Source: an uncultured virus (IMG/VR IMGVR_UViG_3300025000_000089) (taxonomy: Duplodnaviria; Heunggongvirae; Uroviricota; Caudoviricetes). From it: a DNA stretch of 64,000 nucleotides. Under the pieces are notes generated by a model. The model did not search any database. It was not told the DNA's origin and worked only from the letters and a program-made list of their open reading frames with translations. Location of the stretch: IMG/VR virus record IMGVR_UViG_3300025000_000089. One strand, written 5' to 3'. Every line of letters starts with the position of its first letter. Position 1 is the first letter of the stretch. Shown piece by piece: positions 12,163-52,464 of the stretch. The translations under genes and the position numbers were made by a program.

Positions 12163-12477
12163 TTAGCTATTCATCGCCACCGCCGCCGCGTATAACCGAG
12201 CCTTTCCCGCGCGGTCCATTTTCCCGACCTCCTCTGAGAGCAACTTATCTATTCCCTCCTGCTGATCGGGGGAGAGCTGGAAAAACTCGGAGGGGGCGCA
12301 GGCGAATACTTCACAGAGGCGGGTGAGGGTGGAACCGCTGAGGCCGCGCCTGCCGTGTTCCATTGCGCTGATATTTTGCTTCTGCGCCCCTATCATGTGG
12401 GCTAGCTGCTCCTGGGTTAATCCGGCCTCCTCGCGCATTCTGCGGAGGTTGCGACCGGTGATTTTAAGTAGGTCCAT
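12163..12477 (-). CDS. CI-like XRE helix-turn-helix repressor
   Basis: LRRMREEAGLTQEQLA..KQNISAMEHG; divergent from the early operon. Confidence 0.85.
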   Translation of the reverse strand: MDLLKITGRNLRRMREEAGLTQEQLAHMIGAQKQNISAMEHGRRGLSGSTLTRLCEVFACAPSEFFQLSPDQQEGIDKLLSEEVGKMDRAGKARLYAAAVAMNS

Positions 12478-13065: not shown

Positions 13066-13269
13066 ATGGAACGCTACAACGTGATAGTGACTAGCATTTT
13101 CCCGCAACCTAGCGGATTCGGCACAGCTCGCACGGTCATCAACCCGCAGCCGCTGACCATCGAAGCCGCTAGCGACCTAGCAACAGAACGCCGCAATCAG
13201 GGCGCAGTAGTCACCCTGGAGGCGGTACGGATTGAGCCGCTAGACAACCTTTGGAGGAAACATGAGTAA
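13066..13269 (+). CDS. Conserved hypothetical early protein
   Basis: RBS GGGAGG; near-identical to 51416-51610. Confidence 0.7.
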   Translation: MERYNVIVTSIFPQPSGFGTARTVINPQPLTIEAASDLATERRNQGAVVTLEAVRIEPLDNLWRKHE

Positions 13270-13876
13270 GACCCAAATTGACAAAATGGTAAACCGCTTT
13301 CTGGCTTGGCCGATGCCGAAAGACTTCGCTCCCGACTGCGGAATCAGTTTCAAGAGGGAACCGGATGCAAAAGGCTGTGCCCCCGCTTGGCCGGTCGGGA
13401 CGAACCTCTTTACTGCTGATCAGGCGCGGCAGATGTTCGAGCACTGTCTTTTCAGCGAAGCTTTGAGCGGGCTGCAACTGCACCAACAGCGAGTGGTGGA
13501 CGAGAAAGTGGAACTTGACAAGAAAGTCACCGCATTGAGCAACTTCATTGGCCTGAGCCCGATTTTCGACACGCTCGACCCCTCAGAGCAGGAGCGGCTG
13601 AAAGAGCAGAACGATGTCATGTGGCAATACTCCGAAATTCTCGGAGCGCGAATCGCCGCATTTGCGGAGGTTGTGCGGCATAGTAGCACCGAGCCGAAAG
13701 CCGAGTGGTTTATGCACGTCCTTGGCCCCGATGATGTCTTCCCTTGCGTTGGCGAATTTGATGCGCTGCGGAAGGCGAACCAGCACAACCGCTCATGGGC
13801 GCGGCTGATGGCCGACGATCCGAAACCCAACGATCCGTATTGCGTCGCTGTAGCTGTCACTAGGGAAGACATCTAA
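13262..13876 (+). CDS. Three-domain protein with central crAss001_48-like (Sequestin-type sponge) domain
   Basis: HQQRVVDEKVELDKKVTALSNFI..F..L...EQERL.EQ..VM.QYSEILGARIAAF. Confidence 0.7.
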   Translation: MSKTQIDKMVNRFLAWPMPKDFAPDCGISFKREPDAKGCAPAWPVGTNLFTADQARQMFEHCLFSEALSGLQLHQQRVVDEKVELDKKVTALSNFIGLSPIFDTLDPSEQERLKEQNDVMWQYSEILGARIAAFAEVVRHSSTEPKAEWFMHVLGPDDVFPCVGEFDALRKANQHNRSWARLMADDPKPNDPYCVAVAVTREDI

Positions 13877-13970: not shown

Positions 13971-14375
13971 GTGAGGCCGATTAAGTTCAGGGCGTGGGAT
14001 GAGCCAAACGAAACAGGTGGGCCGGAAGGCATGAGCTATAACGCTAGGCCCGATTGCGACGCGACAGCCATCATGCAATTTACCGGGGTCTTAGATAAAG
14101 ACGGCAAGGAAATTTACGATGGCGATATTCTCCACACTAGGAGTGAACTTGTCAACCTAAGCAGCGGACGACAGACTGGTAAATTTTCCGAAAAACTGTC
14201 CGTGGTGGAGTGGAACACGGACGGATGGGGATATTTTCACGCCAGATCTATTGAAAACAGCCCATGCACTATTGGGTTTAAGGAGAAGGGAATAAAGATA
14301 CTAGCGAAGTATTCATCTGTTGTAGGGAATATTTACGAAAATCCGTACTTGGTGGCACTAGAAGAGGCGGTTTAA
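13971..14375 (+). CDS. YopX family protein
   Basis: IKFRAWD..MQFTGVLDKDGKEIYDGDI..VVGNIYENP. Confidence 0.9.
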   Translation: MRPIKFRAWDEPNETGGPEGMSYNARPDCDATAIMQFTGVLDKDGKEIYDGDILHTRSELVNLSSGRQTGKFSEKLSVVEWNTDGWGYFHARSIENSPCTIGFKEKGIKILAKYSSVVGNIYENPYLVALEEAV

Positions 14376-37759: not shown

Positions 37760-39216
37760 TGCAGACCCGCTCTCTCCCCATAGGCAACGGCGTCACCCTG
37801 GACATCAACGACACCTCTGCAAAGGACGGCGTTTCGATTTCCTTCGTCAACGCGTACACCGACCGCAGCGGCGCAATCCGCACAGTACCCGGATGCACCG
37901 AATACGCCGACACCGGAGCAGGCGATGTGCCGGTATGGTCCTACTACTCCACCGACCTTGAGGTATTGGTTATCGTGGCAGGCGGGCGGATTTTCACGCA
38001 GACTGAGCAGGATGGGGCGCTCATCGAGGTATCCGGCGCGACCATTTCTCTGACCTCCCCTCCGACCTTCACCGAAGATGCCGACAACATCTTTTTCGCC
38101 GCCGACTCCGTGATTTACAAGTTGCAAGGAACCGCAGCAACCGCCGTTCCGAATTCGCCTTTGCACGTGACGAGCTTGGCCTACATCGGCGGCTACCTCA
38201 AGGCAAGGGGAGAGCTGGCAACTAGCGCAGTTGCAGGCGATACGCACTACAGCGACGATAAAGCCAACGGGTACGCGGCATGGGAGGTCTACAACAACGA
38301 GTCCCGCCCTGACGCGCTGATGGCGATTGTGGTGGCTTACGAGCAGATCTACAACATCGGGCGCACGTCGCTTGAGGTCAGCTACATCGACGGCACCGTA
38401 CCTTTTAGCGTCAACAAGAACGCCGCGCAGCACTTTGGGACCATGGCGCCTCACTCGGTAGTTTTCGACGGCGAGAGCCTGTACTACCTCACGGAAGTGG
38501 CGAAGAGCCGAAAGATCATCCAGCTTGCCGGTGGCGGCAGTCCTCAAATTATCTCCTTCCCCATTGACGTGCCAATAGAGAAGTTTGAGAGAGTGGACGA
38601 CGCGCAGGGCTTCATTATGGCATGGGCGGGGCAGAATGGGTACGCGATCACCTTCCCGACCGCCAACGCCGTAGTGGATGAGCAGTACTGGACCGGCATC
38701 ACCCTTTTCTATCACCTGCAGAGTAAGGCATGGATCATTCTCGGCCAATGGGACGCAGCGACAGCGACCTATGGACCCTATCGCGGTGTCTCCTTTACCT
38801 TCGTGGAGCCTTGGGGCTTGCGGCTCATCGGAGGCAGGGACGGCAAGCTGTACAAGCTCCAGGCTACGCAGGGGCAGGATTATACGGACGCACCGGAATT
38901 CCTGCACAGATGGCGCGATAACGGGACGAAGGAATGGGGCAACGGGCGGCAAGTGTCGCTAGGGCTGGCAGGGAGATACGAGCAGTTCCCCTCCATCCGG
39001 CAGTGTGGCGCATACCGCAGCAGACAGCATCAGTTCATCTTTACCGACCACACCGACGCAGGGGAGATATTCCGCGCTTCGATCAAGACCGGCCACATCT
39101 CACACAAGGTACCGAACAAGAAATCCGCAGTAATGTACCGCTATGACGTGCAGTGCGGGCAACCGGAATTTATGCTTAACGGCGTGGTCGAGCAGTTCGA
39201 CGTGCTTAGGAGCTAG
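37759..39216 (+). CDS. Tail hub (gp10-like), unit 2 allele
   Basis: 485 aa; about 18 substitutions vs 99-1556 by eye. Confidence 0.75.
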   Translation: MQTRSLPIGNGVTLDINDTSAKDGVSISFVNAYTDRSGAIRTVPGCTEYADTGAGDVPVWSYYSTDLEVLVIVAGGRIFTQTEQDGALIEVSGATISLTSPPTFTEDADNIFFAADSVIYKLQGTAATAVPNSPLHVTSLAYIGGYLKARGELATSAVAGDTHYSDDKANGYAAWEVYNNESRPDALMAIVVAYEQIYNIGRTSLEVSYIDGTVPFSVNKNAAQHFGTMAPHSVVFDGESLYYLTEVAKSRKIIQLAGGGSPQIISFPIDVPIEKFERVDDAQGFIMAWAGQNGYAITFPTANAVVDEQYWTGITLFYHLQSKAWIILGQWDAATATYGPYRGVSFTFVEPWGLRLIGGRDGKLYKLQATQGQDYTDAPEFLHRWRDNGTKEWGNGRQVSLGLAGRYEQFPSIRQCGAYRSRQHQFIFTDHTDAGEIFRASIKTGHISHKVPNKKSAVMYRYDVQCGQPEFMLNGVVEQFDVLRS

Positions 39217-39217
39217 T

Positions 39218-39661
39218 ATGGAATGTTGGGTAAGTCGTGAAGCGTTAAATGAGATGGTGTCAGAAGGTGAGCGTGTGTTCCCTCTAGAAACGGGGGGGCT
39301 ATTGCTGGGGTATTGGGGCAATGGCTCGCCAGTTGTTACAACAGCGATAGGCCCCGGCCCAAAAGCGACACATGAGCGGTTAAACTTCGAACCCGATTAC
39401 GACTGGCATACATTAGAAGTTGGCAGGCTTTACAAAGATAACGATAAGTTGTTCTATCTCGGAGATTGGCACACTCATCCATGTGGGCCGTCATTCCCTA
39501 GTGAGATGGACACTGGCGTGTTGCACATGCTTAAAAACAACGAAGACGCTCAAACGCCAAAACCCTTGATGCTAATTCTTGGTAACCACCTTGACCGCTT
39601 AGGAGCGCATTGTCTGACTTCAAATGGGGTAGAGTCGCTAGATATAAAGGTATTTGACTAA
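39218..39661 (+). CDS. JAB/Mov34/MPN metallo-isopeptidase, stand-alone
   Basis: ETGGLLLGY..GPGPKA..YLGDWHTHP....PSEMD is a complete JAMM motif; RBS AGGAG. Confidence 0.9.
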   Translation: MECWVSREALNEMVSEGERVFPLETGGLLLGYWGNGSPVVTTAIGPGPKATHERLNFEPDYDWHTLEVGRLYKDNDKLFYLGDWHTHPCGPSFPSEMDTGVLHMLKNNEDAQTPKPLMLILGNHLDRLGAHCLTSNGVESLDIKVFD

Positions 39662-51395: not shown

Positions 51396-52047
51396 CCCCT
51401 CACAGGGAGGCAGTCATGGAACGCTACAACGTGATAGTGACTAGCATTTTTCCGCAACCTAGCGGATTCGGCACGGCTCGCACGGTCATCAACCCGCAGC
51501 CGCTGAGCATCGAAGCCGCAAGCGACCTTGCAACAGAACGCCGCAAACAGGGCGCAGTCGTCACCCTGGAGGCGGTCAGGATTGAGCCGCTACCTTTGGA
51601 GGAAACATGAGCAAGGACGTTTGTAAAAAGTGCGGAGGCAACAATACATATTGGCGGGAAGATAACGCCGATACTGGCATGGATGAGCATGCACTAGTTT
51701 GCCGTGACTGTGACAGGAAACCGGCTCGGCTTCCGCTTTCGTTCCGAGTGCGCGAGTGGGCCAGTATCCGGTTTGGCCGGATGTGGGGCCGAGTAATTGT
51801 TACCAGACTTTTCCGACTAGCCCGATGGTCTGCCAAGGTCGGTAAGGGCCGGTGTACCTGGTGCGGCGCAGCTCCCGGCTTCTCTTCTGCCTATGTTGGA
51901 GGTAAAGGGTTGAGGTGCAGCTCTCACGTGAGAGATTGCACAGGGGCATAACATGCGTTTCACCCGCTGGACCCTGCCGCGCTGGGCGAGAGGGGAGGTG
52001 TAAGGAAGTGTCAACGGAGTGCTATTTCGGATAGGGGGGGGTGGGAA

Positions 52048-52464
52048 GTGAGGATAATTAAATTCAGAGCTTGGGACAGACGGCACCAGAAGATGCTTGA
52101 GAACGCTGTAAGGGTTGGTGAAATCCTATATTGGGACGGTGGAAAATGCTTCACCTTCATAACTGACTTTAACACTGACCCGCCGCGCCATGAGGTCATG
52201 CAGTTTACCGAACTCCTCGACAAAAACGGCGTCGAGATATGCGAAGGGGATGTGGTGAAGGGTTCCCACCCCGTAATGAGCCGCCCTGGTCACATCGACG
52301 GAAGCGTGCGCTTCATCGGGGTAGTAGGATACGACAGTCGATGGGGTGGCTTCCGTCGCCAAGGCGTCAATCAGTATAAAGGCTTATCCGCTGCACTTAT
52401 GCACGGGGAGGAGCTTGAGGTCATCGGCAACATCCACCAACACCCCGAGCTACTTAACCCCTAA
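52048..52464 (+). CDS. YopX family protein
   Basis: IKFRAWD..MQFT.LLDKNG.EI.EGD..EVIGNIHQHP. Confidence 0.9.
   Translation: MRIIKFRAWDRRHQKMLENAVRVGEILYWDGGKCFTFITDFNTDPPRHEVMQFTELLDKNGVEICEGDVVKGSHPVMSRPGHIDGSVRFIGVVGYDSRWGGFRRQGVNQYKGLSAALMHGEELEVIGNIHQHPELLNP

Follow-up and report, generated by a model that had tools for sequence, protein, structure and literature searches.

A 204-residue protein encoded by an uncultured virus of the Caudoviricetes (IMG/VR record IMGVR_UViG_3300025000_000089) carries a known sponge for an immune signal in a new fusion, together with one good new candidate domain at its N-terminus (the N-domain, residues 1-63) and a weak one at its C-terminus (the C-domain, residues 147-204). 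The gene (P0001) lies at 13262..13876 on the forward strand of the window, by which we mean the whole stretch of 64,000 nucleotides that was analysed. In the reading that we prefer, with a probability of about 0.55, this would be an early gene whose Sequestin core traps 3'cADPR, whose N-domain acts against another nucleotide signal and whose C-domain is a passenger. The first-pass annotation had seen three parts in this open reading frame and proposed that both flanks are new anti-defence domains. The three parts are real, since the N- and C-domains each recur without the other two, and the proposal survives as a lead for the N-domain, which is found with four sponge families; it fails for the C-domain, for which no second sponge fusion appeared in 30 loci. 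As only the former is supported, we retain one candidate domain rather than two.

The virus contig is 67,350 bases long and contains two phage units that are related to each other and spaced about 37.7 kb apart. They occupy positions 1-29855 and 37661-64000 of the window in tandem, with blocks of 75-95% identity between swapped genes, and the record may correspond either to tandem prophages or to a joined assembly. The fusion gene belongs to a rightward run of small genes, with a divergent Cro/CI-type repressor before it (12163..12477, reverse strand) and a YopX-family gene after it (13971..14375, forward strand; counterpart in unit 2 at 52048-52464), and from this position we infer that it is expressed early; a promoter and terminator scan gave no signal above chance. 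Its start overlaps the stop of an upstream 67-aa gene common to both units (13066..13269, forward strand), and its GGAGG ribosome-binding site (13253..13257, forward strand) is located in DNA shared with unit 2, at the left edge of the slot that differs between the units. In unit 2, the slot is occupied by a Cys-rich gene of 114 aa (51607..51951, forward strand) which, as already proposed at first pass, is unrelated: it has no similarity to the fusion gene and matched no family above cut-off in profile searches. Sequence common to both units breaks off at the start codons (13270 and 51615) and is found again from the stop codons (13874 and 51949) on, which indicates that the slot was swapped whole. 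An assembly artefact was rejected as the origin of the fusion, the protein being present on 21 contigs and an independent assembly matching 967 bases at 99.7%. Unit 2 alone has a JAB-domain gene (39143-39661), whose similarity to CBASS Cap3 stays below cut-off.

The middle domain (residues 74-134; 13481..13663, forward strand) is, by profile and pocket residues, a member of the Sequestin family, the crAss001_48 likeness of the first-pass annotation: residues 74-132 match PF21825 with 66 bits against a cut-off of 24.8 (E-value 2.7e-18). The first-pass statement that this family soaks up cADPR signals agrees with the preprint that named PF21825 Sequestin, a family of 3'cADPR sponges that includes SequestinA, SequestinB and T4 Y16O (Tal et al., bioRxiv 10.1101/2025.07.12.664507; PMC12265669). 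According to that account, two antiparallel protomers hold two 3'cADPR molecules at their interface and SequestinA binds 3'cADPR intact, so that ThsA stays off, NAD+ is preserved and phage replication proceeds; type I Thoeris was blocked by 10 of the 13 Sequestins tested, the other three being inactive (PMC12265669). Residues R77, E81, Q116 and R130 correspond to R8, E12, Q47 and R61 of SequestinA with the same spacing (+4/+35/+14); E12, Q47 (printed 'O47') and R61 are reported there as essential and R8 as dispensable (PMC12265669). These four pocket residues are invariant in all 11 Sequestin domains that we aligned, 10 of which had been picked as N-fused relatives. The closest Sequestins are stand-alone proteins (90%, L363). 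The whole protein already figures, letter for letter and without name or test, as rows 1828 and 1840 of the published Sequestin homologue table, which the first-pass annotation had not recorded. It is probable, by analogy with the characterised members, that the protein dimerises through its Sequestin part, traps 3'cADPR early in infection and keeps ThsA off; in this respect the fusion gene would hold no surprise, being an anti-Thoeris member of an established family.

The N-domain (13262..13450, forward strand) represents an unnamed family that we treat as a candidate counter-signalling module. It consists of a helix, the motif MVxRFLxWxLPxDFxPDxGISF, a variable loop, the motif PxGTNL[FL] and a second helix. 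Residues 1-63 have no match in Pfam, PHROG, NCBIfam or PDB, and a PDB sequence search with the whole protein likewise returned nothing. The family is large, with 4,014 clusters at 50% identity, 352-374 loci in IMG/VR, 35 loci in genomes of GTDB, most of them from Proteobacteria, and, by tblastn, six records (four phages) among cultured phages; one Geobacteraceae bin encodes an N-Sequestin gene with 72% DNA identity over 419 bases. A protein word search, run below 115 aa and above 200 aa, with the range between partly reached by the cluster census and the locus scans, retrieved 72 short relatives of 62-114 aa and 1,213 long ones of 201-2000 aa. Many of the short relatives are the domain alone, and in a second clade of the family 45 of 80 loci are N-only ORFs of at most 130 aa, many of them around 70 aa. 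The N-domain is thus a short phage protein that also occurs by itself.

Among 368 distinct N-domains, W16, P19, P24, D25, G46, T47 and N48 are conserved at 100%, and Q54 and R12 at 93-95%; the conserved positions include no strongly basic set, and the core is largely hydrophobic and proline-rich. As the conserved set has a single Arg, two Asp residues and a core of Thr-Asn/Trp/Phe, a ligand would more likely be contacted through its bases than through its phosphates. The predicted structure comprises two helices linked by an ordered loop (pLDDT 80, pTM 0.59), and predictions of a two-copy complex scored 0.51, 0.36 and 0.02 against a mark of 0.42, which speaks neither for nor against a homo-oligomer. 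Foldseek searches with this model returned only an N-family member from the viral set and nothing from the PDB; the best Z-score in the VIA fold search was 3.5, and the Atlas gave unnamed clusters only, all under 0.9. The hydrophobic, proline-rich core could also be that of a structural helper, which would oligomerise, stabilise or localise its partners and bind no signal. Such a role would fit the tolerance of the N-domain at either end of its partners and inside them (N-terminal, middle and C-terminal in 31, 70 and 19 of 120 long proteins) and its presence twice in five of these 120 proteins. We nevertheless regard it as unlikely, since very many genes encode the N-domain alone, the invariant polar residues D25, T47 and N48 with the nearly invariant Q54 and R12 suggest a specific contact, and Sequestin and Acb4 are reported to oligomerise by themselves (10.64898/2026.06.04.730250).

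Sponge domains are indeed often fused, as stated at first pass, and fusion to known sponges recurs in a small share of the N family. The domain was found joined to four sponge families (Sequestin, Acb4, Tad2 and Acb2-like) in at least six architectures. It precedes Sequestin, as in our protein, or follows it (row 2283 of the published Sequestin table); it follows Acb4 in Curvibacter phage TJ1, and it precedes Tad2 in one locus (L091) and an Acb2-like domain in another (L454). The latter scores 26.6 bits against a cut-off of 27 for PF24729 and closely resembles an Acb2 homologue listed in the Hadary table. In eight further loci (L048, L062, L079, L102, L103, L450, L451 and L458), a whole N-domain of 50-60 aa is inserted in frame within Acb4 at one variable spot, placed by a weak alignment to 9E4W only, with both halves of Acb4 intact; both the long and the short type of N-domain are represented among these insertions. 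Comamonas prophages carry letter-identical copies of one Sequestin, with either Tad2 (row 315) or the N-domain (row 304) in front. Reconstruction on the trees required 11 changes for 18 Sequestin fusions (N tree) and nine changes for 19 N fusions (Sequestin tree), on 59-61 columns that are too weak for counting origins; this hints at several joins between the N-domain and Sequestin.

We then have to weigh the possibility that both flanks are ordinary modules of mosaic early regions with unrelated jobs, comparable to DUF551, Lar or Ead/Ea22 partners, which met Sequestin through module shuffling, Sequestin being the only anti-defence part. The N-domain is indeed fused, in any position, to DUF551, Lar, Lcl_C, NADAR, MazG-like, DUF6378 and hundreds of unnamed domains, a breadth that the first-pass annotation had not noted and which weakens guilt by fusion. 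Sponges are present in only two of the best 150 of the 4,014 N clusters (105 scanned anew, the other 45 taken from the long-protein scan or from precomputed annotation) and in three of 119 long N proteins; the second clade has none in 80 loci, and the C-domain lacks a sponge partner elsewhere. A separate sponge gene adjoins the N gene in two of 195 loci, as judged with home-made profiles.

Against this stands the content of the Sequestin homologue table (3,244 IMG/VR proteins by the count of Tal et al., PMC12265669), which holds the N-domain and not the generic modules. With single motifs and at most 400 characters per cell, in a table where long mosaics may be under-represented, we counted 34 true rows among 35 hits for the N-domain, compared to 39 for Tad2 and 35 for Acb4. 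Four generic modules, searched with five motifs (those for DUF551 and Lar derived from sequences of this analysis), gave no true row and three chance hits. The 34 N rows correspond to about eight lineages, 16 being Comamonas near-copies. The locus scans, made with home-made profiles and checked against Pfam for most ORFs of at least 100 aa, point in the same direction: 21 of 195 N loci carry a sponge (15/80, 6/35 and, for the second clade, 0/80) versus none of 102 control loci (0/80 and 0/22 for two modules of the same mosaic genes), although these controls are too small to discriminate at a sponge rate of 1-2%. Pfam found no sponge in the 78 distinct control ORFs, and after clustering at 90% identity the comparison becomes 12/151 for N versus 0/78 (Fisher p 0.009, kinship ignored). 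In the last scan, the short type of N-domain was with a sponge in seven of 16 loci and the long type in none of 21. Among the 80 Sequestin loci nearest to that of the window, a set biased by a query built from N-fused domains, eight have the N-domain, three Tad2 and two Acb4. The spread of the N-domain over four sponge families and six architectures, and the conservation in eight loci of an in-frame insertion of both types at one spot of Acb4, also argue against shuffling of indifferent modules. We consider the mosaic explanation possible but doubtful, and a further counter-signalling activity of the N-domain, as a candidate sponge module, remains a tentative proposal, somewhat short of even odds.

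Some partners of the N-domain handle nucleotides, namely MazG-like pyrophosphatases (L008, L009, L013 and P0132), NADAR (P0129) and DUF6378 (L217). Sequestin itself has further partners. A helical domain of the phrog_1761 type joins the N-domain in both orders, Sequestin (22 rows of the Sequestin table) and Tad1 (one row); examples are L038:3734-4207, L025, L070, L072, L417, L419, L459 and P0194. It has seven entries in the screen table of Tal et al., where it blocked none of the transformed-in systems (PMC12265669), so that partnership with a sponge is no guarantee that any of the five standard systems will be blocked. As that preprint remarks, proteins negative in the screen might recognise signals of another kind, and the pockets of Acb4 lack a strongly basic character (PMC12265669); the phrog_1761-type domain may have a ligand that their panel did not include. 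Another candidate sponge partner is a beta-rich domain without a name, with WMPYQ at its end, located before Sequestin (17 table rows), before Acb4-Sequestin and before the N-domain (L404:2183-2683, L424:2195-2686 and L063:3644-4504). Finally, a 35-aa Cys-containing module with a KFHGYSG motif precedes Sequestin in L373, L394 and L441 and in five table rows, and the C-domain in L248. Neither the N nor the C motif occurs among the screened proteins tabulated by Tal et al. (PMC12265669).

The C-domain (13700..13873, forward strand; motif WxxH[IV]LGPDD) is a small mobile module with a predicted beta-beta-alpha-beta fold. A word search gave a single hit and a profile revealed a wider family, in which the domain occurs with other N-terminal partners or alone, as genes of 59-88 aa; tblastn detected none in cultured phages. 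A metagenome scan yielded 38 loci, of which 30 (L129-L158) were dropped as wrong-frame chance matches and one (L121) is a copy of the window's gene. The model of this domain, built from eight sequences (pLDDT 77), matched nothing in the PDB by Foldseek; in VIA its best Z-score of 4.5, to ClpS, is within background, and the hits in the Atlas were unnamed clusters plus UPF0150/HicB, whose TM of 0.55 is under the Atlas bar. Its commonest partner is a helical module, W (W-C in 13 of 30 loci), which in P0083 follows N-Sequestin in frame. These modules therefore seem to share a neighbourhood, and the gene could have arisen by read-through and recombination. N-Sequestin relatives (L087) end exactly where the link to the C-domain begins.

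One could imagine a sponge for three signals, all three domains being directed against defence. In six loci of one lineage, the C-domain is encoded behind a gene with a RyR domain (PF02026, E-value 5.6e-9; L124:2175-2621, directly upstream of the W-C gene), and an RyR-like sponge for gcADPR has been reported (10.64898/2026.06.04.730250). Moreover, the C-domain of L248 is joined to a small Cys-containing module of the KFHGYSG type, which it shares with the Sequestins of L373, L394 and L441. Both links are second-hand and confined to single lineages, and outside the window's gene the C-domain was fused to Sequestin, Acb4 or Tad2 in none of 30 loci (20 clusters), a small sample scanned with home-made profiles. 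A three-signal sponge thus appears highly improbable and a sponge function of the C-domain very unlikely; the C-domain is likely a passenger from module shuffling.

In the preferred reading, the Sequestin part would dimerise and sequester the Thoeris signal 3'cADPR, such that ThsA is not switched on, and the N-domain would provide another site, binding a different signal, just as Tad2 and Acb4 do where they stand in this position. The C-domain would have been added through loss of the stop codon of an N-Sequestin gene, with read-through into the module of a neighbouring gene. The search by fusion that led to Sequestin considered Pfam families only (PMC12265669) and could therefore overlook a partner without a name, even one as common as Tad2 or Acb4. 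The N-domain is such a partner, and stand-alone genes of 65-70 aa exist for it. If active, it could reveal a new sponge fold or, via the ligand bound, an unknown bacterial immune signal, and it is as a candidate open to testing that the N-domain gives the finding its value.

Neither flank could be assigned to a known sponge. Identification of the N- or C-domain as Lockin, Acb5, Tad1, Tad2 or Acb2 found no support and was set aside: named sponge profiles match neither, the fold searches showed no clear similarity, and the motifs are absent from sponge tables (for the N-domain, the Lockin, Acb5, Tad1, Tad2 and Acb2 tables that were searched). Full-text searches of the openly accessible literature returned no description of either domain, and none of their motifs is described in the supplements of PMC12265669 and 10.1101/2025.08.24.671296 (PMC12393519); related literature comprises PMC13243611, PMC13728456 and PMC13712596.

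Compared to known systems, the protein of the window belongs with the Sequestins by its Pfam family, its R/E/Q/R pocket and its presence in the IMG/VR homologue table of Tal et al., but it has three parts, whereas the tested Sequestins are mostly stand-alone. It resembles the reported two-sponge fusions, i.e., Acb4-Tad2 of phage Pm86, Tad2-Sequestin of Comamonas and Acb4-Sequestin gp59 of Pseudomonas phage Ab09 (10.64898/2026.06.04.730250), in that Sequestin forms an in-frame fusion with another small domain, the N-domain standing at the place of Tad2 or Acb4. In those fusions, however, both halves are proven sponges, while the N-domain matches no known family or fold and is also fused to many non-sponges. 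As in the mosaic early-region proteins (Ead/Ea22, DUF551 and Lar fusions), the N- and C-domains are exchangeable modules; yet the mosaic modules used as controls (ERQRQ-type and WLIE-type in the loci, DUF551 and Lar motifs in the table) joined no sponge, whereas the N-domain did.
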